Sequence record: NC_070980.1
Direction: 5' to 3' (one strand)
Length of the DNA stretch: 64,000 nucleotides
Source: Escherichia phage vB_EcoP_SU7
Below are positions 38,839 to 55,367 of this stretch, in pieces. Position 1 is the stretch's first letter. Every line of letters starts with the position of its first letter. The notes below the pieces were generated by a model. It did no database searches. It was not told where the DNA came from and saw nothing but the letters and a program-made list of their open reading frames with translations. A program made the position numbers and the translations under genes.

Positions 38839-39150
38839 CTACTTCTCCACCACAAAGAGGTTAACTTCAATGAAAGTTTCGTATTGTGTTGACTCCTGCT
38901 TACGGGTGTAGTAGAAATGACGACCTTCTAATGCACCTCCGTACTGAGTGGCACATCTTTTAACCATCTCTTTTATCACATCTACAACTGATTCGCCTTT
39001 CCACGGACGTAACCCCTGAGTTGGGACTTTTGCTGTACAGGTTACTTGTGTGTAACCTACATCTTGTAGAGATATCTCAAGAATCAGCTTTGCCCAAGCA
39101 TCAAAATTAAGCTTGGGGTTATATTTAACTTCAGTTTTGATATCAATCAT
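38839..39150 (-). CDS. Hypothetical protein
   Basis: 103-aa ORF whose ATG overlaps the stop of the polymerase C-terminal segment (TAATG). Confidence 0.4.
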   Translation of the reverse strand: MIDIKTEVKYNPKLNFDAWAKLILEISLQDVGYTQVTCTAKVPTQGLRPWKGESVVDVIKEMVKRCATQYGGALEGRHFYYTRKQESTQYETFIEVNLFVVEK

Positions 39151-39302
39151 TAGTGAGTATGATTCCAGTTTAATCCAATCTTACAATCTGATGCAAGAGG
39201 ACATTCCATCTTGAGGTATTCCCCTGCTTTACGAACACATTCTTCAGTGAGGGTACGAAGTTTGTTAACATCATCACGATGTACAGTGAACTGACCTTCA
39301 TC
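39150..39302 (-). CDS. DNA polymerase A C-terminal segment (putative exon 2)
   Basis: Encodes DEGQFTVHRDDVNKL...KIGLNWNHTH*, matching the family A polymerase C-terminus (post-motif-C region and terminal NW..H). Under 60 aa, so absent from the ORF track. Confidence 0.6.
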   Translation of the reverse strand, partial: DEGQFTVHRDDVNKLRTLTEECVRKAGEYLKMECPLASDCKIGLNWNHTH

Positions 39303-39909
39303 CATTCAGTTATTCCCAAATTACTTCGGGTGTCGGACTATATCATAACAGCATAGCTAATTTGCTGTTGTTGGCGCTTCGAGGGTTTCCCTGTTAACCC
39401 CCTACTCCCTTAGGATAGTCTCTACACTTTCCACTTCCGAATCCATCTACAACCGATTCCGAAGCTCACACCAAACTTCTCTGCAAGATGTACACCAGAG
39501 CATTCTGTTTCTAGCCAATAAAGCCTTGCAGCTTCTTGTCTATCTCCATTTCTTCCAGTGTTTGATTCTATTGCATGTTCTGAACCTTCAAGCATTTCTA
39601 AGTGCTCAAGATTGGAACAAGCCCTATTCTTGCATTTGTGATTTATTTCATAACCATCAGGAATAGAACCAAAAGATTCTTCCCAAACATATCTATGATA
39701 CATGACCCATTTGCCATCTATTACTTTTCTGAAATAACCATCTTTGTTAAGTTTGTGTGAGATAGGGATGATACACCCTGTTTCGGTTGTTTCCAAAACA
39801 AGAGTTTTCTTAGCCATATCATCTCCTAATAGCTTAGCTCGGTATTGCCCCCAACTTAATGGTAGGGTTTCACCGAGTTCACCAACTTTTACATGCACAA
39901 TGAAAGTTT
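39303..39909 (-). mobile_element. Intron-like insertion (candidate group I intron) carrying an HNH gene, splitting polA at motif C
   Basis: Upstream segment ends ...ATG CAT (U at the 5' junction); insertion ends ...TGAATG (terminal G); joining gives ...IDMH|DEGQF, restoring an HDE motif C. Core intron structure not verified. Confidence 0.45.
39422..39817 (-). CDS. HNH homing endonuclease (within the polA insertion)
   Basis: ATG 39817 with AGGAG SD; motif YEINHKCKNRACSNLEHLE. Confidence 0.7.
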   Translation of the reverse strand: MAKKTLVLETTETGCIIPISHKLNKDGYFRKVIDGKWVMYHRYVWEESFGSIPDGYEINHKCKNRACSNLEHLEMLEGSEHAIESNTGRNGDRQEAARLYWLETECSGVHLAEKFGVSFGIGCRWIRKWKV

Positions 39910-41604
39910 ATGCATGTCAATAACCTTCGCACAACGAACACCATCCCGCTCAATCCATTTATTGAGGAATAGCATTGCATACTTCATAACAATCGCCCCA
40001 GCGCTCTGTAAGAGTGTATTTAAGGCTTTATGGACCATAACCTTTCCAGTTGCATCTCTTCTCATTGTAATACGACGTCCATCCACACCGTAGATATATC
40101 CACTTTGCGCTTTCTCTGTCATACGTTCAATAAGGATTGCAATACAAGGGTTCTCTGCTAAGAATCTTGCTCTCATGATAGCCCCTTCGTCAGAGCCACC
40201 ACCTACAATACTTCCTAACTTAGCGTCACCTGCCCCATAGTTAAAGGCATAGATAAACGTTTTAGCATTATCACGAGTAGGAAGGCCAGCAAGTTTTTGG
40301 TTATGTGAGTGAATATCTCCTTCTAAAAGAATATCTCTATACATAACAGCAGAAGCTAGACCACGTTCAGCTTCTCGTTTCTTAGCCGGGTTGTTTTCTC
40401 GCTCTGCTTCAGCGAGCATCTCACGACATTCTTTAATAAGGTAGTGAGCTAGCATCCTCAGCTCAAGACCAGAGCCATCGTAACCTAAGAAGATTTCACG
40501 ACCAGCAGGAACATAGAACTTATAGGCACCTACAGGTTTGTCTTTCTTGCCCGGTTTTCCCACTTCGTAGATAATGTTAGTACCCTTTCGTACGTAACAC
40601 CCATCAGGGATATGGTTGGTAATGATGAAAGGATGGTTATGACTATCGTCTGAGGAATAGTCAGATTGAAAAAGACTGCGGCACTCGTGACCAAACAAAC
40701 CGCGAGAAGGAATATTAACAACAATGCGATGTTTAAAACGAAATGTCGGAGTAGCGCAGCTATTAGCTTCGGCGGACAACTTACCATCTTTACGTTCCTT
40801 GTCGATAAGCCCGCTAATCAAACCTAGCCTGTGAGCCGCTACAACGCGTCTCTTAAGCAAACTTCCTACACCCCCTAGCTCACCCCCAAGCCCCTCTTCA
40901 AGAGTCTCCTCAAGGTTTGTAGGGGCTGTGGGCCACTTGTTTGATGTAGCCAAAGCTTTTTTGATTTCATCAAAGGTTACAGGTTTCTTCCTATTCGGAT
41001 TAAGACCTAAACCACTGACGTAGGCTTTCATGTAGTTGACAGTGTGATAACGGAAATGTTTATCCAAAAATCTTCGGATATCAGCATCTATCATCTCCGC
41101 TGTCTGTTTCTCTTTAGCATTACCTCGAATCCAAGCAGAATACCATGCAGAGTATGTACCATACTTCTTCATAGCTCTACGGATTTCAAATGTATTCCAA
41201 GGTTTCTTAGAATAATTCCACTCTGGAGGTATGAAGCCTTCGTCCATCAAGGCTTCTTTGATACGTGCATCTTTCGATGGGTCGAAGTCTACATACTCAA
41301 CGCAAGTAAACGCCCCACCGATATCTTCTCTTTTAAGACCAACTCTGTCACAATAGAGCTGAGGCCACTTCTGTAAAGCACCTGACTTCTTAAAAGGTTT
41401 CGAATAAGTTGAACCATCCACCCGCATTTTGGGGAGGAGAGGAATCAGTTCTTTATCAATATTGACAATAATCTCTTTGAGAAGGTGAACAAACCACCGA
41501 GCGTTTCTTCTGTTGAAGTTGACTCCATGCTTCGCTTGTTTTGAGATTATATCAGCGACTGTCATCTCCGTTATGAAAGGTAACTTATCAGGGTTATCCA
41601 TCAC
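39889..41604 (-). CDS. DNA polymerase A, polymerase domain (T7 gp5-like; putative exon 1)
   Basis: Motif B region RDNAKTFIYAFNYGAGDAKLG and downstream LLQSAGAIVMKYAM; ORF stops 5 codons after DMH, immediately before motif C. Confidence 0.85.
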   Translation of the reverse strand: MMDNPDKLPFITEMTVADIISKQAKHGVNFNRRNARWFVHLLKEIIVNIDKELIPLLPKMRVDGSTYSKPFKKSGALQKWPQLYCDRVGLKREDIGGAFTCVEYVDFDPSKDARIKEALMDEGFIPPEWNYSKKPWNTFEIRRAMKKYGTYSAWYSAWIRGNAKEKQTAEMIDADIRRFLDKHFRYHTVNYMKAYVSGLGLNPNRKKPVTFDEIKKALATSNKWPTAPTNLEETLEEGLGGELGGVGSLLKRRVVAAHRLGLISGLIDKERKDGKLSAEANSCATPTFRFKHRIVVNIPSRGLFGHECRSLFQSDYSSDDSHNHPFIITNHIPDGCYVRKGTNIIYEVGKPGKKDKPVGAYKFYVPAGREIFLGYDGSGLELRMLAHYLIKECREMLAEAERENNPAKKREAERGLASAVMYRDILLEGDIHSHNQKLAGLPTRDNAKTFIYAFNYGAGDAKLGSIVGGGSDEGAIMRARFLAENPCIAILIERMTEKAQSGYIYGVDGRRITMRRDATGKVMVHKALNTLLQSAGAIVMKYAMLFLNKWIERDGVRCAKVIDMHKLSLCM

Positions 41605-41617
41605 CCACTCCTTATAG

Positions 41618-41971
41618 TTATTGGTATATTAAGTCTGTGAATGCTTGGTTGTCTTCAACAATATCTAAAGCTTCATATGAATCAGCCAATTCATCCACAT
41701 AAAAGACTGCTGGAATATCTTCTGCTCGCTGTCTACGAGATTCCCTTTGTTCATTGATATTTCTTTGAACCTGTGCAAGTTTCATACCCCACACCTGCTC
41801 ATACAACTCTGGATATTTGTCACTAACCACTACATAATTTCGAGCTGGTTGGTTTCTATTAATCTTCGCTGTCAACTCAATAAACTGGCGAAACTCTTGA
41901 ATAGAGAGGTTGTCATGAATATTATCCCATTTGAGAACGCAGTGACGTTCTAGGCGTTGAGGTACTGGCAT
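41618..41971 (-). CDS. Hypothetical protein
   Basis: 117-aa ORF. Confidence 0.4.
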   Translation of the reverse strand: MPVPQRLERHCVLKWDNIHDNLSIQEFRQFIELTAKINRNQPARNYVVVSDKYPELYEQVWGMKLAQVQRNINEQRESRRQRAEDIPAVFYVDELADSYEALDIVEDNQAFTDLIYQ

Positions 41972-41974
41972 AAC

Positions 41975-42244
41975 TTACTCCACTGTCGGGAATGGTTTTA
42001 GGTTGTTCATGGCTGTACGAACATCAGCACAGATTTCAGGATCACGATAAGAGAGGAATTTACCATCCTTACCACGAATCATTACATTAGTCCGTGCTGT
42101 TTTATTAGGCAATAAAGAAATCCCTCCAATAAGATGGTTGGTAGGGTGTTGTCCTTGATTAACCTTGTAGTCATGAGTCTGAGCGTCACCATTAAAGAGA
42201 TGATCACGAATTTGGATTAAGCTAATCTTCATATTATGCACCAA
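41975..42244 (-). CDS. Hypothetical small protein (paralogue of 42234-42485)
   Basis: Shares KTARTNV(M/A)(I/L)RG(K/P)DGKF(L/I)S(Y/F)RD...NLKPFP with the adjacent ORF. Confidence 0.4.
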   Translation of the reverse strand: MVHNMKISLIQIRDHLFNGDAQTHDYKVNQGQHPTNHLIGGISLLPNKTARTNVMIRGKDGKFLSYRDPEICADVRTAMNNLKPFPTVE

Positions 42245-42485
42245 AATTAGGGAAAGGTTTCAGATTTTCAATAGACTTAGCAATACGCTTAGGAACAGCC
42301 TTATCACGGAAGGAGATGAACTTTCCATCAGGACCACGAAGGGCTACATTAGTACGAGCTGTTGTTTTGTTAAACTGAATCATCTCAACAGAGCTTGTAA
42401 CATTTTCTACAGGAAAAGTATAGCTCTCAGTTGTGTTCAGAGAAGGGAGGAAATCAGTTACAGTGATGTAAGTTACTTTAGACAT
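42234..42485 (-). CDS. Hypothetical small protein (paralogue of 41975-42244)
   Basis: ATG 42485 preferred; the track's GTG start at 42521 lies inside a terminator hairpin. Confidence 0.4.
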   Translation of the reverse strand: MSKVTYITVTDFLPSLNTTESYTFPVENVTSSVEMIQFNKTTARTNVALRGPDGKFISFRDKAVPKRIAKSIENLKPFPNFGA

Positions 42486-42515
42486 ATTTATTACCTTAGG
42501 TTCTATAAAAGAAAA

Positions 42516-42540
42516 GGCCACCCGAAATGGGTAGCCTTAT
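42516..42540 (-). terminator. Terminator-like hairpin (same family)
   Basis: GGCCACCC...GGGTAGCC stem (one mismatch) followed by T-run on the minus strand. Confidence 0.45.
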
Positions 42541-42541
42541 A

Positions 42542-42859
42542 TCAACTTGAGCTTAAAGCTCCTTTGCGACCGCCTGCTGATTTTCCAGCACGATCTCCAC
42601 TTTTGCCGCCGTTCGAGCGATTTCGAGAGACTGATTCAACACGTAAGTTACTTGACGCATTAGAACCTCCCGACTTGATTGATCGTTTGTGTCCAACATC
42701 TTTACCTCGGACAGCAGCTTTTCCATCGCGCTTTTCAACGATGCGACGTGCACGGTGGCGCTGAGCATCTCCGCTCTTGCTCCCAATTCCCGTTTCACCG
42801 CGCTTGATCGCAGTCCTTCTTTCTTGAGCATAGTCTCTTTTTCCTACATGATCTGCCAT
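42542..42859 (-). CDS. Hypothetical basic Gly/Ser/Lys/Arg-rich protein
   Basis: 105-aa low-complexity basic ORF; an alternative helical ORF (42553-42831) occupies the same DNA in another frame, so the true frame is unresolved. Confidence 0.3.
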   Translation of the reverse strand: MADHVGKRDYAQERRTAIKRGETGIGSKSGDAQRHRARRIVEKRDGKAAVRGKDVGHKRSIKSGGSNASSNLRVESVSRNRSNGGKSGDRAGKSAGGRKGALSSS

Positions 42860-43188
42860 TAGATTTCTCCTGATTCTCTTTGGTTAAAGGTGTGGATGGC
42901 GTGGCAATTAGCACACAATATCCTGCACTTCCTCATCTCTTCTTTTATTTGAGATAAAGATCTGGTGTGCCCTTTGGAGAGTTCGAATGACTTAGTTAAT
43001 GGATTTAAATGATCAAACTGAAGAGCAGATGCGTGGCCTTTAAAACCACATTCAGAGCACCCGTAGAATGTTTTAACTCTACGAATAAAAGCTAGTTGCC
43101 TAAACCTTCTTCTCTCATTGTCTGCTTTTCTCTTATCTCTATTTCCTGGGTCGGCCCATCTACACGAGTCATTGCAAAACCTCTGCAT
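42859..43188 (-). CDS. HNH endonuclease
   Basis: CSECGF...QFDHLNP...LCANCH motif. Confidence 0.65.
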   Translation of the reverse strand: MQRFCNDSCRWADPGNRDKRKADNERRRFRQLAFIRRVKTFYGCSECGFKGHASALQFDHLNPLTKSFELSKGHTRSLSQIKEEMRKCRILCANCHAIHTFNQRESGEI

Positions 43189-43421
43189 TATATACTTCGT
43201 TACAAATGGTACCTTACAGGTTTCACATTCCTTGTGGTATGTTGCTATTTTGACCCCCTACTCAGTGTAAACAAAACCTTCTTTATCGGCTGACTCTTTT
43301 GCAAAAGTTTTTGCATCTTCAAGAGTGTCAAAAGTCTCAGTGATATAAACTTCTCGAGGCCCGTTTTTGTATACTACAGAAAACTTACCACCCTTAAGTT
43401 CTATTGGTTTCACAACAGTAC

Positions 43422-44162
43422 TCATTGAGACCCCTTCTCCATTGCTTTAACAATCGCCTTACAGAAACCAGAACGAACAATGTCATCTGATTCACCATCT
43501 ACAATCTCAGCGAACTCATACAGATCATGTTCATCAATAAAGTTAGTAGCCCAAGTAAGACCACTCTCACGACCACGCATATCATGCTGGTTAGTATCAC
43601 CCATGCAGAACAGCTGAGAGGTTTCTCCCAATCGGGTCATGATTGAGAAGGCTTCATCCTTAGTTGTGTTCTGGAACTCATCTACGATAACAATAGCATC
43701 ATTGAAAGAACGACCACGGAGATATTCCAGAGGTACGAACTCAATGTTACTGTTACCGAGCTGGCATTCATAGAACCCCTTACCATATCGCTGAGTAATA
43801 ACATCAATGATGGGCATCAGGTAAGGTTCAAACTTCTCACGCATTCCTCCCGGAAGTAACCCAAGAGAGTTGCCCATGCCAACTGAAGGTCGACTCAGAA
43901 TGATCTTCTGAATCTTACCGCTCTTCAGTGCATCAATAACTGTGGAAGTGATTACAAAGGTCTTACCACAGCCCGCAGGAGCGTCTGTGAACACAACTTG
44001 TTTAGTCTTAATAGCATTGAGTAGCTCAGACTGAAACTGGTTCTGAGGGACTACAGGCTTTGCTAAAACCACCTCTTCATACTCTCGCTTACCCTTATGA
44101 GTAACAAGTGCTTCCCGACGAAGGTCTTTCCGTGATTCTTTCCGTGATTGACGACGACTCAT
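43422..44162 (-). CDS. phoH: PhoH-like ATPase
   Basis: Walker A VVFTDAPAGCGKTF and Walker B AIVIVDEFQN. Confidence 0.8.
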   Translation of the reverse strand: MSRRQSRKESRKDLRREALVTHKGKREYEEVVLAKPVVPQNQFQSELLNAIKTKQVVFTDAPAGCGKTFVITSTVIDALKSGKIQKIILSRPSVGMGNSLGLLPGGMREKFEPYLMPIIDVITQRYGKGFYECQLGNSNIEFVPLEYLRGRSFNDAIVIVDEFQNTTKDEAFSIMTRLGETSQLFCMGDTNQHDMRGRESGLTWATNFIDEHDLYEFAEIVDGESDDIVRSGFCKAIVKAMEKGSQ

Positions 44163-44344
44163 TTACGCTCTCCAATTTCTTCGTAATGACACTCAGTAGT
44201 TAAGCAATCTTTACAGATTGCTGTATAAACCCTGACGTTAGTAAATCGTTTGTTCTTCCCTTTGGTTGGAGAGCCTTTAGCAAGCTCTCTGATAACCTTG
44301 TTACTTAAATGAAGGTTTGTTCCTTCACATCTAGAGCACTTCAT
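44159..44344 (-). CDS. Hypothetical small Zn-ribbon protein
   Basis: CSRC...CKDC pairs. Confidence 0.35.
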   Translation of the reverse strand: MKCSRCEGTNLHLSNKVIRELAKGSPTKGKNKRFTNVRVYTAICKDCLTTECHYEEIGERK

Positions 44345-44660
44345 GGTTCATGTCTTTATGAATCCTGTAAACAGCTGTCGCCATACAAGCAACAGCCTCG
44401 TTGTGTGGGAGATGCATTCCTGTAGAACCATCCCAATCTTTGAACTCAGCGTCAAAGACTCCGGTAGGCTCTGGATACAGAGCTTGCAGCTCCACTAGAT
44501 CATTAGCAACTTGTTGCCATTTATCATCAGACCAGATAGGGTCATCCAACCAGTAATACAAATAGGAATGGATGATCAATTGCCTTCTGTGCCGATTTAT
44601 TACTTCAGCGGGACTTATCTCACTTCCATTTGAAGTCCTAAATGTATTACTGTCAATCAT
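44331..44660 (-). CDS. Small protein resembling the N-terminal Ia domain of NAD-dependent DNA ligase
   Basis: LIIHSYLYYWLDDPIWSDDKWQQVANDLVELQALYPEP parallels the LigA N-terminal H.YLY..D.P.I.D..YD.L..EL...PE pattern; only 109 aa, no adenylation domain. Confidence 0.35.
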   Translation of the reverse strand: MIDSNTFRTSNGSEISPAEVINRHRRQLIIHSYLYYWLDDPIWSDDKWQQVANDLVELQALYPEPTGVFDAEFKDWDGSTGMHLPHNEAVACMATAVYRIHKDMNHEVL

Positions 44661-44842
44661 TTCACAACCTTAAATTTGAATGTTGTTGGGTGATAATAGT
44701 GCAACCTGTTAATGGTGTGCTTTGTTTCAAGGTATAACCTGCAAGAGTGACACATGACATGAGTCAAACCGGTTACAGGATTAGGTTTAAAGTTGGCGAC
44801 AGTCTTCTCTTTCTTACAGAAGCTACAGACTTTCTTTTCCAT
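44657..44842 (-). CDS. Hypothetical Zn-finger protein
   Basis: CSFCKK...CHSCR motif; start set at internal Met. Confidence 0.35.
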   Translation of the reverse strand: MEKKVCSFCKKEKTVANFKPNPVTGLTHVMCHSCRLYLETKHTINRLHYYHPTTFKFKVVK

Positions 44843-45056
44843 CTTTTCTCCAGTGGTCAACGAATTGCTGAAACACTTTATGGTCGAAGGTGAAACCGCG
44901 AGCAATCCCACACTCTACGAAAGTAGAAGGCATATAATCTACATCACCTTCAGATGTATGACCATAGATTTGAATAAGCTTCTTAATCTTATCCTTCTCT
45001 CTTCGAGGAAGCATTCTAAATGCCTCCTGAATATCTGTAATATGTTTTATCTTCAT
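44823..45056 (-). CDS. Hypothetical protein
   Basis: 77-aa ORF. Confidence 0.3.
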   Translation of the reverse strand: MKIKHITDIQEAFRMLPRREKDKIKKLIQIYGHTSEGDVDYMPSTFVECGIARGFTFDHKVFQQFVDHWRKDGKESL

Positions 45057-45202
45057 AAGAAATTCCTGCTAATCCTCTGAGTTGTGGGAACAGCAATATT
45101 CACATACTCCACAACAAGGGCAGATTTCTACACTTGGGTCATATGCATCATCAACTGTCATCCCACACTTGGTGCAGAACACGTCATCATCTTCTTCCAA
45201 TA

Positions 45203-45850
45203 TTAACTCTCCAAAGTTTTCTTCAGGGCTGCCCACGAGATTGGGTAGAGTTTAGCCATCTCTTCGTCTAGAGATTGGGCAAACACTCGAACTTCATATT
45301 GAGCGTGAGATGAGAGTCGCTGACGACACAACTCAAACCAGCCATACAAAGAACCAGTCCAGTACCAAGTAGTTATCATACCTTGAGGCAAAACAAATCT
45401 AGCCTGTTCCGGAGCAATAAATTTAATCAATTCATCATAACTAGCAAGAGATGCTTCATACGCAGAGTTAAACAAAGCCAAAGCTTTTGCCTCCTCTTCC
45501 CCTTCAAGAAGCGCTCCAGAACCAGAGTGTAAATCATCTGGACGAGAGAAAATTTCTTTAGGTATGAAAATATCCACTGCTCCGTCTTTGTATCTACGAC
45601 TCATCTCATTCCAAGAGAATCCAACTTGATGTTTTTGTAGCTGTCGTGCGATTGCTATCGGGGCTTCACACCGGAAGCTTGCTTGTGGGTGACGAAAAGG
45701 GCTTACATGGCGTTCTCGAGCTAAGAAGTTAATAAGCCGAGTATCATTTTCTTTCAGCTCCTCCCTTTCTACTCCCATAGTTACACGAGCGGCATTTACC
45801 ACAGTAAGGTCTGATCCGAAGTTATCAATTAGTGAAGCTTTGATTGTCAT
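45203..45850 (-). CDS. thyX: Flavin-dependent thymidylate synthase (ThyX-like)
   Basis: ThyX-like ...FRHPQASFRCEAPIAIARQLQKHQVGFSWNEMSRRY; the usual RHR triad appears as KHQ here, but the alignment is by eye. Confidence 0.7.
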   Translation of the reverse strand: MTIKASLIDNFGSDLTVVNAARVTMGVEREELKENDTRLINFLARERHVSPFRHPQASFRCEAPIAIARQLQKHQVGFSWNEMSRRYKDGAVDIFIPKEIFSRPDDLHSGSGALLEGEEEAKALALFNSAYEASLASYDELIKFIAPEQARFVLPQGMITTWYWTGSLYGWFELCRQRLSSHAQYEVRVFAQSLDEEMAKLYPISWAALKKTLES

Positions 45851-46316
45851 TTATATAAATCTCCTTGACTTTATTATATTCCCTAGAGGCCTCTTCTACG
45901 GTTGAGAAGAGTCCTATATGCTTAGATTTAAATACAGCCCGATAAGCAATAGAACCACTTTTCCTTTTATGAACAGTTACTCCAATTACTCCAGTGGATA
46001 AGTTATTACTCTGTGCTACCCTATTAAGACTGTTTCCTGCTTTAGTAGTCCCTCTAAGATTCTCTCTTTTGTTGTTCAACCTGTTGCGGTCCAAGTGGTC
46101 TACCTCTTCAGGAAGCGAACCAGTGTCCCACCAGTAAGCAAGACGGTGAGCGTAATACTTAACACCTTTATAGATGATTCTCAAATACCCATTGGTATTT
46201 ACAGAACCAGCTATAGATCCTTTGTGTCCTTTTCCATAAGTTTTAACCCATCGGAAATCTCCAGTCAAAGGGTCGTAATCAAGAGCTTCTTTTATTGATA
46301 GGTCAATGTCATTCAT
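45825..46316 (-). CDS. HNH-AP2 homing endonuclease
   Basis: HNH_3 motif YAHRLAYWW...VDHLDRNRLNNKRENLR plus AP2-like C-terminal domain; overlaps the thyX start. Confidence 0.7.
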   Translation of the reverse strand: MNDIDLSIKEALDYDPLTGDFRWVKTYGKGHKGSIAGSVNTNGYLRIIYKGVKYYAHRLAYWWDTGSLPEEVDHLDRNRLNNKRENLRGTTKAGNSLNRVAQSNNLSTGVIGVTVHKRKSGSIAYRAVFKSKHIGLFSTVEEASREYNKVKEIYINDNQSFTN

Positions 46317-46331
46317 CCGTGAACTTCCTTA

Positions 46332-46607
46332 TTACTTTTTGTTCAGAGCTGTATCCAAAAAGGCTTTCAGGTTTGCTTCAGTTTGCATACCGGACAAGCT
46401 GTAATGAGCACCACTGTTCTTATCAGGGATGACAAAGGCTGGGATACTGCGAACACCATATTCAATGGCTCGCTCTCGACCATCACCTTCGGTGATATTT
46501 ACTTCTTCAACTTCTACGTTGTAATCATCTACAACCTTCTTAAACACAGGAGCCATAGCTGCACAAGGTGCACATGAATTACTATAAAACTTAATCACTT
46601 TACTCAT
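46332..46607 (-). CDS. Thioredoxin/glutaredoxin-fold protein
   Basis: ATG 46607; active-site SCAPC (CxxC) near the N-terminus, about 91 aa. Confidence 0.6.
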   Translation of the reverse strand: MSKVIKFYSNSCAPCAAMAPVFKKVVDDYNVEVEEVNITEGDGRERAIEYGVRSIPAFVIPDKNSGAHYSLSGMQTEANLKAFLDTALNKK

Positions 46608-46797
46608 TCTATTCCTTGTTAATAAACAGGTTGATATGACGCTGGGTAGCAGGAACAACAATAAAAGATTTATACTGACCTTTTGCTAAGTCATGAGCAA
46701 TCTTCTTTGTCTGACCAAGACCCATCACACAGCCACTAACGATAATGGCATGTGCTTGTAATTCTTCAGGTAGGTTTAGTTTCACTCTTTGGGTTCC

Positions 46798-46983
46798 TTA
46801 TAGCATACAAAGAATAATAACAAGAGGTAGTGTTATAGCAAAATGTACCAGAACAACACTACCTAGCTTGATAGCTTTAACATCCTCTTCTGCTGGGTTT
46901 TCTTTAATTGCTAAATTTCGAGCTTTATATATAACAGTACCAACTATTAACGACCACACGGCCCACACAATCAGTGAAATCAT
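46798..46983 (-). CDS. Small membrane protein (paralogue A)
   Basis: Two hydrophobic helices flanking ...KENPAEEDVKAIKLGS...; paralogous to 46993-47214. Confidence 0.4.
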   Translation of the reverse strand: MISLIVWAVWSLIVGTVIYKARNLAIKENPAEEDVKAIKLGSVVLVHFAITLPLVIILCML

Positions 46984-46992
46984 ATCAAACCC

Positions 46993-47214
46993 TTATGCAG
47001 TCAACAGGTGGAGAAGGAAAGGAATCACAATAGTACAAACTACCAGAGCGATGCTGCCATGTTTAATAGCTTTAGCTTCACTTGGATTTTCTTTAAGCAT
47101 CTGCTTCTGGGCCAGATAGACGATACCACCAATAATGATTGCCCAAAAAGACCATACGATTGCTGAAAACATATTCACATCCTTATAAAGAAGTTCGCCC
47201 CACCTCTTAAACAA
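46993..47214 (-). CDS. Small membrane protein (paralogue B)
   Basis: Same architecture (...KENPSEAKAIKHGS...). Confidence 0.4.
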   Translation of the reverse strand: MFKRWGELLYKDVNMFSAIVWSFWAIIIGGIVYLAQKQMLKENPSEAKAIKHGSIALVVCTIVIPFLLHLLTA

Positions 47215-47235
47215 AGAGACAGGGCGGAGGTTTGA

Positions 47236-47811
47236 TTAGTAAGACACATCACCACTAGAGTGGGACATGTTGCTCTTGACGAAGTAACAGAACTTGCCAA
47301 GACCTTCATTAATTTCTTGAAGCATACTCTGGTCCACTGGATAGGTGCACAAGTCTGAATCAAACTCATCCATCTTCTCAATGATACACATAAGAGTCAT
47401 GCACATGTCGGAAAGCATACCGTCCATGTCAAGATCAGCGTTACCTTCTCGGAACCAAGCATGACCTAAATAATTACTAGCAGTAGCATCCACCTTAACA
47501 CAATGAAAGCGCATACGCTCTGCTATTCGGTCGCCTGCCTCACGAGCATAATCTTCTAGTTCATCGAACATACCATGAACACCTTGGAAACCAGCTCCAG
47601 AGACGTTCCAGTGGTAGTTCTTTGCTTTGATGTGTAGAAGTTCAAGGTTAGCTTGCACACCACACAAGATGTGTTCTAAGCTGTTACCGCTAATCAGTTT
47701 ATTCATTCCCTCAAGACGAGAGATAGAAGAGTCAGTAGTAGAGAATGGGTTGCTAGAACCCACTCGTGTTAGTTCTGGTAAGTCGAAGACATTATTATGC
47801 ATTAGGTGCAT
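47236..47811 (-). CDS. Dps-like ferritin (DNA-protection/ferroxidase family)
   Basis: HWNVSGAGFQGVHGMFDELEDYAREAGDRIAERM matches the Dps ferroxidase-centre pattern. Confidence 0.65.
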   Translation of the reverse strand: MHLMHNNVFDLPELTRVGSSNPFSTTDSSISRLEGMNKLISGNSLEHILCGVQANLELLHIKAKNYHWNVSGAGFQGVHGMFDELEDYAREAGDRIAERMRFHCVKVDATASNYLGHAWFREGNADLDMDGMLSDMCMTLMCIIEKMDEFDSDLCTYPVDQSMLQEINEGLGKFCYFVKSNMSHSSGDVSY

Positions 47812-48142
47812 CCCCTTCTAAGTTAGTTGAATTAGCTACATTACGAGCAATGTTATCCATGACCTGCTGTGTAATAACAATGCAATTCTGAGGGTCTACT
47901 GATTTAGAACGCCCCATCTCAGGGTCATAGACTTTGACTCGCTTGGCTGTTGAGCCAGTAACTTGCAACACTTTGAGAAGATAGCCTTGGTTTCCAATAG
48001 ACCATGCAACAACATCACGATTCTTGATATAACGACCAAGCATGTCACGATGATAGAACTGCTGCATAACTTTAGCTTTGCTAATCTCTTCAGATGGCGG
48101 GGCCACTTTACTCAAATCTAACATAACTCTCTCCTGTTTCAT
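47795..48142 (-). CDS. Hypothetical protein
   Basis: 115-aa ORF. Confidence 0.4.
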   Translation of the reverse strand: MKQERVMLDLSKVAPPSEEISKAKVMQQFYHRDMLGRYIKNRDVVAWSIGNQGYLLKVLQVTGSTAKRVKVYDPEMGRSKSVDPQNCIVITQQVMDNIARNVANSTNLEGDAPNA

Positions 48143-48194
48143 ACAATATTCTTATACTGTATATACATTTGAGAGTTATCATATCTACTACCAA

Positions 48195-48401
48195 CTAGTA
48201 ATAAACCTTGCTGGATATGAATCCAGCACTGTTATGGATATTTTCAATCCAACGATGAATCTCCACCTTTTCAGCGAGACCTAAAGCTTTTGTAGCTTTC
48301 TTAGCAAGACGAGCTTCTTGTCGAGTGTCGAATAATTTAAGACAATCACCACCAAGGTCTTTGTTAGCCCATTTAACGCGAACTGCCCATAATTTAGCCA
48401 T
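48195..48401 (-). CDS. Hypothetical small protein (paralogue)
   Basis: W.VRVKW...TRQEAR..KK pattern shared with 48401-48613. Confidence 0.35.
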   Translation of the reverse strand: MAKLWAVRVKWANKDLGGDCLKLFDTRQEARLAKKATKALGLAEKVEIHRWIENIHNSAGFISSKVYY

Positions 48402-48613
48402 TAGTAATGTACCTTTCCGCTGATATAGAAACGACCTGATTTAAAGTCTTGAGCTTTGTGGATAGTGATCTTATTAATTGTGCTTTCACAACTTAACAAG
48501 AACTTCTTATGAGCGCGAGCTTCTTGACGGGTGTTTCTAATACCCATCGACTCTGCACCACTACTCCAGCGAATACGAACTACCCAACGTCTTTTCATTG
48601 TTCCAAACTCCAT
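48401..48613 (-). CDS. Hypothetical small protein (paralogue)
   Basis: Tandem paralogue of the downstream ORF. Confidence 0.35.
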   Translation of the reverse strand: MEFGTMKRRWVVRIRWSSGAESMGIRNTRQEARAHKKFLLSCESTINKITIHKAQDFKSGRFYISGKVHY

Positions 48614-48616
48614 CAG

Positions 48617-49150
48617 TTATACGCCTTTAGAAGCAACTACACCATTACTACCGTTATAACGACCCTTCACTGCATAGGAATCATCACCAGCGTGAGAGTG
48701 TTCAAACATAACCATTTGACCAACACGCATCCCAGCACGAACTCGTAAGCTGTGATTGTGGGTAACGTTATGGAACTCAAAGGTTAGCTTACTGCTATTA
48801 AACCCTGCATCAGCCCAACCAGCATGTAAGTGGTTCAAACCACAACGAGCCATAGAGGAGCGAAGTACAAACAGACTTGAGATGTTATCTGGAAGGTTAA
48901 ACTCTTCCATTGAGTGAGCTAAGAAGAACTGTCCCGGAGTGATGACAATGCCATCTTCAGGGATTTTCACTTCTTTCCACTTGAGGTTTTCTTTAGCATC
49001 AATGTCAACAATACCATCAGCCTGTTCTTCAACAAGGATAGTATCACCAATACGGATATCCACGCTAGCAGCGTTAACATATTTATGCTCCGCATCTAAA
49101 AAGCCATTATCAATAACGCTGTGTAATTCTTGAGAACCTAAAAGACTCAT
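48617..49150 (-). CDS. dcd: dCTP deaminase (dUTPase fold)
   Basis: 177 aa; N-terminal ...DNGFLDAEHKYVNAASVDIRIGD... typical of dCTP deaminase/dUTPase-fold enzymes. Confidence 0.7.
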   Translation of the reverse strand: MSLLGSQELHSVIDNGFLDAEHKYVNAASVDIRIGDTILVEEQADGIVDIDAKENLKWKEVKIPEDGIVITPGQFFLAHSMEEFNLPDNISSLFVLRSSMARCGLNHLHAGWADAGFNSSKLTFEFHNVTHNHSLRVRAGMRVGQMVMFEHSHAGDDSYAVKGRYNGSNGVVASKGV

Positions 49151-50634
49151 GAGTTTCTGTTTCCTTGTACAGATGATGCCAAATTATTAATCATATTACG
49201 AGCTGTTTCACGAGATAGTGTAACACCTGCTAGGTTGTTGTGAAGCTCACCAGATAGCTCACGAGCTGCTGCTCGTAGTTCTGCACCAAGTGCAGTGTCA
49301 GAGTGAGCTAGACCATTACGACGACCAACAGGTCGAGGAGCTTCGTTAGCGTCATTAGCTAATGATGCAAAACCAATATGAGCAGCTTCACGAGCCGCTA
49401 TAGCTGATACTCGATCTTCTGTAGGGGTTGGCAAATCACCAACTTCTACACGTTCAATATCACTAGCACGTAGACCCTGAACAACAGAGCTTACTGTTTC
49501 CCATGAACGACGAGAACGCTGCAAATCATCCATTGACGGAGATGGAATAGGACGAGCAGTTCCTCCTTGGACATGCCATGTACGAGTATCCATTCCAGAA
49601 GAGTGTGCACTACCAAAACTACCAGTGAAAGTATCACGAGGTCTTTCATGAGGTTGTACGTTATACCCTACAACACCCCCTCGAACAGTTCGAGAAGTTT
49701 CTTCATTAAAAGCTTGAAGATCTCGTCTGTTAGTTCCCGGAGTCCAAGGTCGTGTAATTGCTTCAGCACCTATAGTGGTTAATCCACTAGACCATTCTGT
49801 CTGTAGGTTAACTTCCTCGTCCAGATAACTACGACCCCTTTCCTGAGGAATGTTTAATGTAGTTTCCATCATCTTCAGGGTATAATGACGACGCTGATTC
49901 TGATATAAATTTACACCAGCCATAGGCCCAACTAAATCACTGATCAGATGAACTTCTGGTTCACCAAAAGCTCCCATTGCAAGGTGCATGTACTCAGTAG
50001 AACTGCTGTAAACTGCAACTGTTGCTTCAGGCCACTTTTTGTGGACATACTTCATGTCACGACTTGTCACCACAGGGATATCATTAGTATATGCCATTGC
50101 AAACATACCTTCGTTCGACACATACATATCATCGAGAGTCATAAACCCTTGACAAATCATAGGGAAGCGACCGCTCAGAGTATCCATATCCAGAGGGAGG
50201 TTAATCATCATCTGAATCTTCACTTCGTCAATCTCCACTTCCAAAATCTCTTGGAAAGTGAAAAGTGCTTCAGCGTAGGTTGTTCCACTGATAGGCTGAA
50301 CTAGTCGAGATGTAACTTGAAGCCCCTTACTCTCTGTCCAAGACAAGAAGTTGTCAAGGAACAGTGCAGCATTACTTACGTTAGCAGGGCTGTTTTCCTG
50401 ACGAGTGTTCCAACGGAATCCTCCTTGAACTAGGAAGATATCAACATCATTCGGAGTTCGATTTTGGAAGAACGTATCACGGATAGCACCACCTGCAATG
50501 ACAGGATAGATACCATCAGGGACTACGTTATCTCTGATCAGATTGCGAATCAGATCAAGCCCTACGCTGAGGGCTTCTCCTTCTTGAAGGTTTAATTCAG
50601 ACAATGGAATCTTAATCATTTCTACATTTTCCAA
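49147..50634 (-). CDS. Putative Pol-beta superfamily nucleotidyltransferase
   Basis: IAGGAIRD...(13 aa)...DVDIFL fits the hG[GS]...DxD minimal nucleotidyltransferase pattern (CCA-adding-like head); C-terminal about 150 aa low-complexity Ser/Arg/Ala-rich. Confidence 0.4.
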
Positions 50635-51170
50635 TTTAGAGATGGGGGATTCTTATAATCAAATCCAGCCATTTGACAAAGACACATGTAAACTTTAACT
50701 GTCAAGTTAACGTCTTGCTCACAATAGGTGAACATGTCTTCAGTGAATGCGTCCCATGCCTCCTCCTGTTCTCCATAATCTCCTTTCAGCTCCCCAAGAA
50801 ACTCGCCCCATTGTTTGAGGCCGTGACCACGAGGGCCATGTCTAGGGTCGCCTTTGGGGTATTCTGGACTATCACCAATACGGTCAGGCTTGAGATATCT
50901 ACTCAGGCACAAAGTATCGAAGACGTTAAAGCGAAAAGGTATCACATGAGAATAAAACTTAAACAAAGCAGGAAGGTCAAAATCAATAATATTGTGACCT
51001 ATTACTACATCAGCTTCTTTCAGTTTGTGTAGTGCTTCTTCAATTTGGTGAGGGCGATACCCCCACCGCTCTCCAGATAATACATCAAATATCCAGATAC
51101 ACCAGACATTCTGAATACCATCATAGAGATTATCCCCCTCGATATCAAACGCATACAGTTTCTTTACCAC
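50622..51170 (-). CDS. 3'-5' exonuclease domain protein (T7 gp5 N-terminal domain-like), separate from the polymerase ORF
   Basis: Exo I FDIEGDN, Exo [16 protein letters not shown], Exo III YCEQD; ends with a stop, about 9 kb from the polymerase-domain ORF. Confidence 0.7.
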
Positions 51171-52954
51171 GGACGTGCCTCCCCTTCTTGTGCAAGTAAG
51201 GAAGCTGCATCCTCTCCATTGGTAACGGTAAAAGGATGCTCTTCATCAACTTCATGATCTTCTCGTTCTACAAGACGACCTGTTTCATTGATGTATTTGG
51301 TATAGCAAACCCCTGTCTGTCCATAGTTACGCTCTTTGAGCAGTCGTATGATTGACAAGTTTTTACCTAACCCATCCGCTTGTTTGTTACGTTCAAAACC
51401 AATAATACACTGACACCAGCGCATCAATGAACGTGAACCAGTAAACTGTACTTCTTTAACCTGACCACCTTCTTCGTGGGGTGCACCACCTGCCGGAGCG
51501 TTCAAGTGAGATAATACAAAAGCAGTGAAGTCTAATTCCTTACACATACCAGCAAGCTCTGAAGCAATCTTGCTGATTTCTGTGTTTACCTCAGATGGGG
51601 TTAAGTGAGATACCAATGCAGTGATGTTATCAAGAATGATAAATTTACACTGATTCTCAACTACCCAAAAGCGAATACACTGCTTAATGTCTTCCCACTC
51701 GTTCTGCCCAAAGTTGTCATACAAGAAAAACTTATCAGCGTATCGAAGTGCTTCATCTCGTAGCTGGCTTTCTTCGTACTCAACATCTGGTCGGTGGAAT
51801 GGAATAGATGCAGATTTACCTGCAATGTTCTTAACAGACATGCCTACCTTCTCTTCCAAGAAGAAGCCACCACCATTAAAACCATGCTCAAGGCAAAGCC
51901 ATGCTACTAGTTCGTGTGCGATTAAGGTTTTACCTGAACCAACACCACCGCCGATTGCAACCATCTCTCCCCAACGAATACCAAAGGTCATGTCGTTAAG
52001 AGTTTTCCACGGATAAGGAATACCCCATTCCGCTTTCTTCAGAGCATCTTCGAGGCAATCAAAAACTGTAACAGCTCCAGCAGGAGATTCCCGCTTAGCT
52101 GAATATTTCAGATTGTTGAAAAGCTCTTGACCTCTCCCTGCAAGTAACATGTCGTTTGCATCTTTGATTTCCTTTTCTTGTCCGTTATAAGTGAACGTAC
52201 CTTTTGGAATCCTTGCAAACTTAACATGCGGGTACAGAGAACGACCCTTAGTTAAAGCAATCTCACCTGCATCATCATTGTCCATGCAGAGTACAATCTC
52301 CTCGAAACCATTAATAAAATCACGGTTTCTTGATAATACAGAAGAGATTGAACCTGCACCGAACGGAAGAGAGACGCAAGCAGGTTTGATGTTAGTTGCG
52401 TTTGTAAACGCGGTAAGTACGTGGAACCCAGACATACAAGAGAGAGGGTCTTCAAAGATGAAGAGTTTCTTGTTGTATACGTCACCACGTTGTGCTTGAG
52501 CCATACCAAACAAGTCGGCTTCTTTCACATTACCTACATAATAGAACTTCTTGCTGTCTAGAAGTTTTACTTCATATCCAACAATGTTCCCATCACGTTC
52601 ACGAGGGAAGAAGTAGCTGTCAGGAGTTTGACCATCTGTTTGGCTTAAACCGATACGGCATCCATAACGTTCAGATACAGCTTTAGGAATTAAGCGACGA
52701 GTCAACTCTCCCTGAGGAAGCTCTAAGCAATCGTCTAAGACTTCTCGGAGTTCTTCAGGGGACAGCTCTTTCTTTTCATTAGGAGTGGGCGTCGTTCCTT
52801 TCTCGAAGATTTCATACGCACCACATCTGTTACATGAACCCCACTCCTCACCGGACTCTTCATTTCGGAAGAGAATCATGTGATTGCGGGTCTTATCACG
52901 ACCATGAGAGATACACTCTTTACAGCCCGTGTCTCCCAAAATGATCTTTGACAT
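51164..52954 (-). CDS. Primase-helicase (T7 gp4-like)
   Basis: N-terminal Zn-binding CKEC...CNRCG, helicase Walker [10 protein letters not shown]; 596 aa. Confidence 0.85.
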
Positions 52955-52989: not shown

Positions 52990-53195
52990 TTAGTAAAACG
53001 ATCGTATTTCTTCCCACACATCATCTTGCAAGTTTCTAAAACCCTGCAAGGTTTGCTTTGTTCTGTGAATAAATTCTTCAGAGTGCTTATCAGGTGTGAG
53101 CATACTGACAAACTTTTCATAGCGATTAATCTTCCACCGCATCTTTAAGTAGTCAGATTCAAGCTTTCTTAACTTCTGCCTGTCAGTTACTGTCA
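52990..53195 (-). CDS. Hypothetical small protein
   Basis: Track ORF trimmed to internal Met after the upstream gene's stop. Confidence 0.3.
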
Positions 53196-53614
53196 TCCTT
53201 CTCACCTGCCAGATATGCTGTCCAGTCACCCGATTCAACCAGAACATCTTGTTCTTCGTCGATGTGATAAATCCACGCTTCCACAGTTTCACCGCTGTCC
53301 AATAATACTGGAATCAGCGTACGCTTGTAAAAGGTGTATGGGTTATCATTACCACGATGACCTTCCAGACCGTCATACGGACCTTCCAGACCAGCTTGGG
53401 TTGTTTCAAAGACTTCTACACGAACAGGCTTACCATTGCTGTCATGCTCCAAAGATACACTTGGGAAGTATGCTGTGCAATATTGATACAGGTTACAGTT
53501 GTTTACTGTCCACCCTTCACCAATAGACACACCACCGGCACGAGCATTGATAGCGTGGTTGTGTTGACCTTTTCTCAAGCTTCCGTAAGTTGCAACTAGT
53601 ACTTTATCAGACAT
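53183..53614 (-). CDS. Gamma-glutamyl cyclotransferase-like (AIG2/GGCT fold) protein
   Basis: N-terminal VATYGSLRKGQHNH (YGSL motif) and 143-aa size. Confidence 0.55.
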   Translation of the reverse strand: MSDKVLVATYGSLRKGQHNHAINARAGGVSIGEGWTVNNCNLYQYCTAYFPSVSLEHDSNGKPVRVEVFETTQAGLEGPYDGLEGHRGNDNPYTFYKRTLIPVLLDSGETVEAWIYHIDEEQDVLVESGDWTAYLAGEKDDSN

Positions 53615-53680
53615 TATATTACCTTTTAGTGTTTCAGTTAAATTCGAACTAGCCTCCTCTTTCGAAGAGGCTAAAGCAAA

Positions 53681-53866
53681 TTATTCTACTTCGAAGTGTT
53701 TGATCACACCAGTCAGTACATCAGATTGGAATGTACCCACTAGCTCTGTACCTCGGAAGAAGTTGACATTTGTTCCAAGTGATTCAAAGCGATCTGCTTG
53801 AATGTCCAGAGATTGAATATTTCCTTCTGCTGACATTGTACGAAACATGATTGTGTATTTATTCAC
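53681..53866 (-). CDS. Hypothetical small protein
   Basis: 61-aa ORF inside the modification-enzyme cluster. Confidence 0.3.
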   Translation of the reverse strand: MNKYTIMFRTMSAEGNIQSLDIQADRFESLGTNVNFFRGTELVGTFQSDVLTGVIKHFEVE

Positions 53867-54105
53867 AGACTTGTTACTCCCTTATCTGCTTGTGCAATTG
53901 CGATGATACGCTCAGCACATTCCATTGAATATTTATCACCTCGTTTGAGGAAGGTGATGATTGCAGAGAACTGATTACCAATCATTCTCTTATTTGTGAT
54001 ACCGAACTCTTCACAGAGTTGGTTGATAGCTTTACGAGAGCCTACAATAAGAGGCTCTTTTTCTTCGGTCATTCCACGGCTGATCAAATCTTCGATAGAC
54101 AACAT
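53863..54105 (-). CDS. Hypothetical small protein
   Basis: 80-aa ORF coupled to neighbours. Confidence 0.3.
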   Translation of the reverse strand: MLSIEDLISRGMTEEKEPLIVGSRKAINQLCEEFGITNKRMIGNQFSAIITFLKRGDKYSMECAERIIAIAQADKGVTSL

Positions 54106-54131
54106 TACAAATTCCTTTTTGTTTAATTTAA

Positions 54132-55367
54132 TTACAGAGTTACTGCTACTTCGCTACCTTCAACATTGACAGACTCTAACTTGCGAGGGTTATGAATCTG
54201 GACTGGATTGACCGGAACGTTCCAACCACTGCGGTAGAAGTTACGACCATCACAGAACAGGATGACATTGGCAGACATTGCATTCGGTTGCAGGTTGTTG
54301 TGGACATGACGGATATTTGCAATCCAGTAGCCACGAGACAAAGTGTAGCCAGTAGGTGCATTACGAATAGTTTGAGTATTCATCTGACCTTCCAGTTGCA
54401 TTTCTTCAGGAACCACATCAACTGAATCAATCGGCTGTGCTACTTGTCCTTCCAGTGCAAAGTTTTCATCATCAGCACTTTCACTGTCAGCAACCAATTC
54501 ACCGTCCCCGTCTTCAATCGGAGTCTGGTAAACCACTTTATACTGAGGGGTATAGAGAGGGTTCTGAGCTTTAACAAACTCAAGAATGTTGTGACGATAA
54601 GTATCCAGAGTCGTACCAGTCAGTCCCGGTGCTGTGTTAACTTCCAGTACCCATGCTTCTTGACCTTTGGTGATAATATCAACTGCACCGAAATCCAGAC
54701 CCATTGATTCAACAGCTTTCACCGCATTGATCAGAGAGGCATCATTCGGAGCATCTGTGAAGGAGCTTGAGTAAACCCAGCCAGTGTGGTGATTACGAAT
54801 ATCTTCACGATAGTTAGGGTCTTCGCGATAACCATTGCGACGAATCTTCTTCTGAACATAGGTGATTACACCTTTGAACACATGGACACGCCATTCACGA
54901 CGTGGGCCTTGAATACCTTTAGTGTACAGCTCAGCCTGATCAACTGTAGTGTTAGGCTCTACAACAACAATACCTGAACCAGAGTGACCAGTCAGCTCGT
55001 GACGCTCATACACAATGTTGCCAGCGTTTGACCACTCCTGAGCAGTCTCTTGAACATCTGTGTATTCCACAGTTTTAACACCTGCTTGGTCCATCACACT
55101 GAAAGCACGACGTTTGTTCGCTGCCATATGTAAGGCTGCGGTACGGTTAAGGACGGTTGCAGAACCAAAGAATGATTCAGGATAGCGACGGTTCCCGTAG
55201 TTAACAACCACATCATCTTCACGAGAACGCCAGCGGCTATTCTCTGAAAGAAGCCCCATCACGTTAGCATTGATGCGTTCATCACGGATAGTATCACTGA
55301 TAGCAGATACCAGAGCGTTAACAGAATCAGACGGGCCATACGGAAGAACACGGATACGAGTAGTCAT
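54132..55367 (-). CDS. ATP-grasp ligase (RimK/glutathione-synthetase-like)
   Basis: ATP-grasp pattern: ...HSGSGIVVV..., ...WRVHVF..., ...EAWVLEVNTAPGL... Confidence 0.6.
   Translation of the reverse strand: MTTRIRVLPYGPSDSVNALVSAISDTIRDERINANVMGLLSENSRWRSREDDVVVNYGNRRYPESFFGSATVLNRTAALHMAANKRRAFSVMDQAGVKTVEYTDVQETAQEWSNAGNIVYERHELTGHSGSGIVVVEPNTTVDQAELYTKGIQGPRREWRVHVFKGVITYVQKKIRRNGYREDPNYREDIRNHHTGWVYSSSFTDAPNDASLINAVKAVESMGLDFGAVDIITKGQEAWVLEVNTAPGLTGTTLDTYRHNILEFVKAQNPLYTPQYKVVYQTPIEDGDGELVADSESADDENFALEGQVAQPIDSVDVVPEEMQLEGQMNTQTIRNAPTGYTLSRGYWIANIRHVHNNLQPNAMSANVILFCDGRNFYRSGWNVPVNPVQIHNPRKLESVNVEGSEVAVTL

Follow-up and report, generated by a model that had tools for sequence, protein, structure and literature searches.

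Separately encoded T7-type exonuclease and polymerase in Escherichia phage vB_EcoP_SU7: a predicted two-subunit replicase whose polymerase gene carries a predicted group I intron

Introduction

Polymerase and 3'-5' exonuclease are found on separate polypeptides of one complex in Escherichia coli Pol III (alpha and epsilon, the latter being DnaQ) and in archaeal PolD (DP1/DP2). These enzymes belong to families C and D, and their origin is unrelated to the fission of a family A polymerase gene that is the subject of this study. We analyzed a stretch of 64,000 nucleotides (nt) of DNA from Escherichia phage vB_EcoP_SU7, a Gordonclarkvirinae coliphage of the phiEco32/Kuravirus-like type (sequence record NC_070980.1), called the window hereafter, in which an open reading frame (ORF) at positions 50622-51170 on the minus strand is predicted to encode the proofreading exonuclease of a DNA polymerase of the T7 gp5 type, and in which the corresponding polymerase domain is encoded by a separate gene on the same strand.

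All Kuravirus-like phages have such a separation, as does a set of named related phages (PMC9965538, 2023), and every LUZ24-group phage carries polymerase and proofreading exonuclease as separate genes according to an earlier paper (PMC3517423, 2012), which attributes a similar organization in phiEco32 to Savalia et al. (2008). The RefSeq records of phages ECBP2, KBNP1711, and SU10 and the records of the BASEL collection name the ortholog of the ORF studied here "DNA polymerase exonuclease subunit." The split is real and, since it stands in these papers and product names, already known for this phage group; our analysis adds no new biology to it. The closest described system, the split replicase of the phiEco32/Kuravirus-like phages (Gordonclarkvirinae), is the same thing as found in the window, with an exonuclease that shares 95-100% identity with its counterparts in EK010, Bas86, and ECBP2 and with the same 9-kb gap between the genes. 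The LUZ24-like Pseudomonas phages (Bruynoghevirus), where the two proteins are called "DNA polymerase part I" and "part II," likewise have the exonuclease after the primase-helicase and an exonuclease-less T7-type polymerase downstream, and they share the module of amidoligase, GATase, ATP-grasp, and GGACT genes upstream. They differ in sequence (~32% identity for the exonuclease and ~40% for the polymerase), in a gap of only ~2 kb, and, in some members, in a polymerase gene that is interrupted at other sites.

A further split polymerase has been described in a survey of phage PolAs (Czernecki et al., Nucleic Acids Research 2023; PMC10201439), in which the T7-like PolA of S-SBP1-like cyanopodoviruses is divided into exonuclease and polymerase genes at the domain boundary. 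The AlphaFold2 (AF2) model of the split S-SBP1 complex superposes on an unsplit homolog, and the thioredoxin-binding loop of that PolA is shortened, a feature shared with the polymerase studied here; the same paper compares split PolA with PolD, finds that all phage PolAs seem to retain exonuclease activity, and reports that the structural stability of PolAs depends on the exonuclease domain. It calls the S-SBP1 split the first in PolAs and mentions neither phiEco32 nor LUZ24, for which PMC3517423 is the earlier report. The S-SBP1 split differs from the one considered here in that its genes are adjacent and were made by a 1-nt deletion, independently, whereas those of vB_EcoP_SU7 are 9 kb apart in an arrangement common to several virus genera.

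In T7 itself, gene 4 precedes gene 5. The locus in the window resembles that of T7 gp5 (Protein Data Bank entries 1T7P, 2AJQ, and 6N7W) in domain order, in catalytic motifs, and in the presence of a gp4-like primase-helicase gene upstream. T7 gp5 is a single chain of 704 residues, whereas here the same domains are distributed over two chains of 182 and 614 residues, and the polymerase differs from gp5 further in having extra insertions and in missing part of the thioredoxin-binding region.

The Exonuclease Gene

The 182-residue protein encoded at 50622-51170 (minus strand) is predicted from its Pfam family, its match to gp5, and its AF2 model to be a stand-alone 3'-5' proofreading exonuclease homologous to the N-terminal domain of T7 gp5. 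In this part of the window every gene is on the minus strand, and the exonuclease ORF overlaps by 7 nt the ORF of a gp4-like primase-helicase (596 residues; 51164-52954, minus strand; Pfam DnaB_C and Toprim_2). Its start is a GTG within the heptamer GTGGTAA, with GGGGAGG before it, and the same heptamer carries the stop codon of the primase-helicase; since that stop overlaps the GTG, the two genes may be translationally coupled.

Compared with Pfam DNA_pol_A_exo1 (PF01612), the exonuclease ORF scores 24.2 bits (E = 3.2e-5; curated cut-off 23.6 bits), and a comparison that is independent of Pfam aligns it with residues 4-142 of T7 gp5 (phmmer, E = 4e-8). All three catalytic motifs are present, and we followed their residues through an alignment of 28 stand-alone homologs reaching down to 35% identity. 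Exo I (DxE) is D9-I-E11, which is invariant and aligns with D5 and E7 of T7; Exo II (Nx2-3(F/Y)D) is H59-N60-IIDF-D65, with H59, N60, and D65 invariant, and aligns with HNGHKYD of T7; and Exo III (Yx3D) is Y149-CEQ-D153, with Y149 and D153 invariant, and aligns with YNVQD of T7. The invariance of these catalytic residues points to purifying selection. A C-terminal NPP linker motif is nearly invariant in the same alignment, and the NPPS found here corresponds to FPPE in gp5.

The AF2 model of the exonuclease, which was built on an alignment of its homologs and without the polymerase, has a mean predicted local distance difference test score (pLDDT) of 92.9 and a predicted template modeling score (pTM) of 0.89. 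In a Foldseek search of the PDB with this model, T7 DNA polymerase accounts for every one of the best 27 matches (E = 7e-10; template modeling score by query, TMq, 0.74-0.76), and the weaker matches, comprising exonuclease domains of family B polymerases and stand-alone DnaQ-like nucleases, are about five orders of magnitude worse. The three motifs, the profile score, and the RNase H-like/DnaQ fold place the protein among the DEDDy family A exonuclease domains. As judged from its sequence, the ORF is a complete T7 gp5-type 3'-5' exonuclease domain with intact catalytic residues. A preliminary description of the locus had proposed that the ORF after the primase-helicase carries Exo I, II, and III of the gp5 N-terminal domain and then stops, which these comparisons bear out.

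The DnaQ fold is also that of stand-alone enzymes (the weaker matches include diDNase and exonuclease I), and the 182-residue protein could on this ground be an independent DnaQ-like nuclease, serving host DNA degradation for salvage or the processing of recombination intermediates or primers, next to a polymerase that lacks proofreading. A separate gene 9 kb from that of the polymerase and neighbors that act in nucleotide metabolism (nucleotidyltransferase, dCTP deaminase, and ThyX) agree with such a role. We nevertheless regard it as unlikely: the best matches in both sequence and structure are specifically to the exonuclease domain of gp5, at the margin over other folds given above, and the boundaries of the protein, the gene order in relatives, and the reported dependence of PolAs on their exonuclease domain for structural stability (PMC10201439) speak against it as well.

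The Polymerase Gene

The preliminary description placed the polymerase domain at 39889-41604. An ORF there does encode a family A polymerase without exonuclease domain by its Pfam assignment, but 39889 is not the end of the gene, which is predicted to pass into an intron and to resume in a second exon that extends to 39150. The match of the ORF to Pfam DNA_pol_A spans profile positions 144-334 of 381 and then breaks off, and the unspliced ORF terminates with VIDMH-KLSLCM and a stop codon. In phages EK010 and Bas86 the polymerase gene is uninterrupted, encodes 614 residues, and reads VIDMHDEGQF at this position. From Pfam and the DNA alignment with these two phages we delimit a T7-type exon 1 of 564 codons (39910-41601, minus strand), whose last codon is that for the His of motif C (HDE). 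Translation delimits exon 2 (39150-39302, minus strand), with 50 codons and a stop, running from DEGQF to NWNHTH; it provides the Asp and Glu of motif C together with the C terminus of the polymerase, and its NWNHTH resembles the NWAICH that ends gp5. The polymerase probably starts at the ATG at 41601, which has AAGGAG in front.

The spliced polymerase of 614 residues matches T7 gp5 with E = 4e-33 in an alignment that reaches the last residue of gp5, and the exonuclease and spliced polymerase, placed end to end, are collinear with gp5 residues 1-704. The exonuclease ends near gp5 residue 200, at the FPPE linker, and the polymerase begins near residue 205, so that the break falls at ~200-205 and no more than a few residues remain unaligned where the two meet. 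These alignments show a clean gene fission at the boundary between the exonuclease and polymerase domains. An independent nuclease is hard to reconcile with a break that lies exactly at this boundary and with the conservation of the linker motif. The lack of a fused exonuclease domain extends to the best 120 polymerase homologs, all of which have at most 633 residues and are therefore without that domain.

The collinearity raises the question of whether the two ORFs are nonetheless made as one polypeptide through splicing, trans-splicing, frameshifting, or a split intein, an idea to which the presence of a predicted group I intron of a working type in this very polymerase gene lends some color. 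We consider it extremely improbable. The 9,020 nt between the ORFs hold ~22 further ORFs, well-conserved enzymes among them; the stop codon of the exonuclease is conserved in relatives, and the polymerase has its own AAGGAG and ATG; and relatives differ in the length of the gap, which ranges from 2 to 10 kb. Relative to T7 gp5, the exonuclease-polymerase junction has no additional sequence, so that the halves of a split intein would not fit. A search with Rfam of the 3' end of the exonuclease gene and the 5' end of the polymerase gene gave no intron signal at either boundary, only one chance snoRNA-like match (E = 0.21), and splicing or trans-splicing from exonuclease to polymerase was rejected on this basis. 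The concern that the two ORFs might be joined by splicing or frameshifting, raised in the preliminary description as a way in which its reading could fail, thus finds no support, each ORF having a separate Shine-Dalgarno sequence and start and neither boundary an intron signal.

Many polymerase homologs in the relatives are shortened. One set (P0047, P0051-P0053, P0092, and P0094) has ~450 residues and ends in motif B, at AKTF/IYAF, and another (P0067, P0077, and P0083) has ~500-566 residues and ends in motif C, after MH and before a K. The two sets therefore suggest two recurrent sites of interruption, by introns or by homing-endonuclease genes, in this polymerase lineage.

Gene Order in Related Phages

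EK010 (Suseptimavirus, Gordonclarkvirinae) has an exonuclease protein of 100% identity, about twenty other coliphages have proteins of 95-99.5% identity, and the ORF is found at an identity of at least 60% in 96 phage records. The surrounding 15-kb region is a mosaic whose pieces are 90-97% identical to several Suseptimavirus-like phages. A database search returned 36 homologs of the exonuclease, all of 105-208 residues and none (0/36) fused to a polymerase domain. The gene in the window is likewise a stand-alone exonuclease of the ~165-210-residue class directly downstream of the primase-helicase, the arrangement by which we recognize the split replicase, and the adjacency of exonuclease and primase-helicase recurs in Bas86, EK010, ECBP2, Pseudomonas phage TL, and two further contigs (L008 and L009).

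The preliminary description had suggested a comparison with the organization of the polymerase in related phages, and this comparison reveals the same split and the same order in Suseptimavirus-like, Lahexavirus, Bruynoghevirus, and metagenomic relatives. In Bas86, EK010, and ECBP2, the primase-helicase, the exonuclease, a variable insert, and the polymerase follow one another on one strand, with a gap of ~9 kb. Aeromonas phage LAh_9 (Lahexavirus) has the same order with a gap of ~10 kb that holds NrdD/NrdG, PhoH, Dps, and ThyX, and the order is found again with gaps of ~2 kb in Pseudomonas phage TL (Bruynoghevirus) and 2.3 kb in a 44-kb metagenomic contig. The short contig L009 has the exonuclease directly after the primase-helicase and then similar cargo. 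Taken over all genomes or contigs long enough to contain both genes, the exonuclease lies upstream of an exonuclease-less T7-type polymerase in every case (7/7).

This pairing wherever both genes are visible is a further point against an independent nuclease. That the ORF might be an unrelated DnaQ-like nuclease with no polymerase partner was the second way in which the preliminary description allowed that it could fail; with the gp5 exonuclease as the best match and an exonuclease-less polymerase always paired with it, the trans-acting reading stands. The same comparisons bear on whether sequencing or assembly has produced the split as an artifact, or the ORF is a decaying fragment of a pseudogene. 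Such explanations have next to no probability in view of the 96 phage records, the invariant catalytic residues, and the same layout in independent isolates and metagenomes.

Directly upstream of the primase-helicase (53183-55367, minus strand, and beyond) we observed a module of COOH-NH2 ligase, amidoligase, glutamine amidotransferase, ATP-grasp, and gamma-glutamyl cyclotransferase genes. This amidoligase-type module is conserved from the phage studied here to LUZ24-like and Lahexavirus phages (L006, L007, and L008).

The Insert in Polymerase Motif C

The 607 nt that separate the polymerase exons (39303-39909, minus strand), between the His and the Asp of HDE, are predicted to form a group I intron of the PhiI/W31/13a type, on the evidence of its boundaries, its P1 and P10 pairings, Rfam, and covariation. 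The insert encodes an HNH homing endonuclease (39422-39817, minus strand; 131 residues from ATG; Pfam HNH_3, E = 2.4e-12). The frame of this endonuclease stays open as far as a GTG at 39898, and ECBP2 has an ortholog of 396 nt with the annotation HNH endonuclease. In P1 the end of the 5' exon, ACAUGCAU, pairs with GUGCAUGU in the intron, placing a U.G pair at the splice site; in P10 the sequence UUCAUU, which adjoins the P1 strand, pairs with GAUGAA, the first six bases of exon 2. The 3' end of the intron reads GAAUG, its last base being G. Removal of the intron leaves the frame intact and creates the junction MHDEGQF, with the same amino acids as in the intron-less genes of EK010 and Bas86.

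A search of the whole 64-kb window with Rfam at gathering thresholds gave no match. Below threshold, Intron_gpI (RF00028) scored 26.3 bits on the element, short of the gathering score of 50 (E = 1.9e-4 when 1 kb was searched and 0.012 for the whole window), and no other Rfam match in the window reached E <= 0.05; because the ORF splits the core, the model covered just the 3' part of the intron. We further aligned eight homologous elements and scored seven helices with 43 pairs. In these, 97.8% of cells are paired, compared with 30-50% when the partner strand is slid, a measure on which the unslid register is favored by the drawing of the helices from the window sequence, and 14 pairs are compensatory. 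The long-range helix P3, which spans the HNH frame, has compensatory changes in 5/7 pairs, and the pairs of P1 and P10 track the exon sequence.

Over its full length the intron is 66-68% identical in nucleotides to inserts at the same site in gene 5 of T7-like phages, and the record of phage 13a annotates its gene 5, with the homologous insert, as a join. The introns that Bonocora and Shub (2004) described in PhiI and W31 lie, according to PMC3428280, at E. coli Pol I site 881, the His of HDE. The group IA2 introns of PhiI, W31, and 13a share with the element described here both this site (H/DE) and the placement of the HNH ORF; they differ in the host gene, which is gene 5 of T7-like phages in their case and an exonuclease-less Gordonclarkvirinae polymerase in ours.

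An alternative for this element, that a free-standing HNH gene divides the polymerase into polypeptides of 571 and 51 residues, would be served by an in-frame ATG just before exon 2. We rejected it: the covariation of P1, P10, and P3 and the homology to the annotated 13a intron favor a group I intron, and we assign the insert to that class from these comparisons. Like the genome studied here, ECBP2 and a few other relatives carry the intron, which EK010 and Bas86 lack. The records of ECBP2 and pEC-N1203-2Af.1 annotate the element as two "DNA polymerase" coding sequences (CDS) plus an endonuclease or hypothetical CDS and not as an intron.

In Bas86 (positions 4202-5510 of locus L001), the annotation gives the COOH.NH2 ligase gene as a join of two pieces that enclose an HNH endonuclease gene, and the corresponding gene of EK010 is uninterrupted. 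This interruption is probably another intron of this phage group.

The Region Between the Two Genes

The gap between exonuclease and polymerase (41602-50621, minus strand) measures 9,020 nt, in keeping with the separation of about 9 kb given in the preliminary description, and holds ~22 ORFs from the ORF list and Pfam, more than the roughly 15 genes estimated there; Bas86, EK010, and ECBP2 have 21-22 annotated CDS in the same interval. Its products include a dCTP deaminase, a ferritin/Dps-like protein, a thioredoxin, two HNH endonucleases, ThyX, an Nlig-Ia protein, PhoH, and small proteins without assigned function, as well as a nucleotidyltransferase that is named from annotated relatives and has no Pfam match. 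The products listed in the preliminary description are thus present, except that the HNH gene next to the polymerase, being encoded by the intron, sits inside the polymerase gene and not between the exonuclease and the polymerase.

The thioredoxin (46332-46661, minus strand; Pfam Thioredoxin, E = 3e-13) lies in a genome whose polymerase retains only part of the T7 thioredoxin-binding region. It may be a processivity partner of the polymerase, which is a hypothesis only; the idea was raised in the paper on the related phage Privateer (PMC7881722), which suggests that thioredoxin may act as a processivity factor. A protein of 109 residues in the gap (44331-44660, minus strand) comprises nothing but the Ia domain of NAD-dependent DNA ligase, which binds NAD+ (Pfam Nlig-Ia, E = 7e-35), and relatives call it "DNA ligase" despite the lack of an adenylation domain.

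Discussion

The comparisons made here favor a replicase of two subunits in which the exonuclease probably proofreads in trans, as the preliminary description had supposed. In the simplest history, an ancestral gene for a T7 gp5-type polymerase would have been broken at the linker between the exonuclease and polymerase domains, in what may have been a single event. The exonuclease half would have remained directly downstream of the gp4-like primase-helicase gene with its own, overlapping start, the polymerase half would have acquired its own ribosome-binding site and start codon, and the break would have been filled with genes of nucleotide metabolism and homing endonucleases. The 182-residue exonuclease would then be made as its own protein and fold alone, dock noncovalently on the polymerase in the position that the fused domain occupies in gp5, and edit the primer terminus by removing misincorporated 3' nucleotides. 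In vB_EcoP_SU7 the polymerase subunit would in addition require self-splicing of the group I intron RNA to restore motif C.

We infer the docking and editing steps from the identity of the domain, its intact and selected active site, the conserved linker motif, and the strict pairing with an exonuclease-less polymerase. The S-SBP1 precedent, in which the modeled complex of a split PolA resembles the unsplit enzyme, points the same way by analogy. Several considerations weigh on the other side. The Pfam score of the exonuclease barely clears its cut-off (24.2 against 23.6 bits); the genes are 9 kb apart and could differ in the level or the timing of their expression; and the exonuclease may have an added or alternative role, for example with the primase-helicase to whose gene its own is coupled. 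In the literature on this phage group we found no physical association or activity described for the exonuclease-polymerase pair.

The split in this phage group was overlooked by the 2023 survey of PolAs. The usual assumption is that a family A polymerase needs its exonuclease in the same chain, and a natural split of the kind carried by vB_EcoP_SU7 and its relatives would therefore be a useful model for the communication between proofreading and synthesis.

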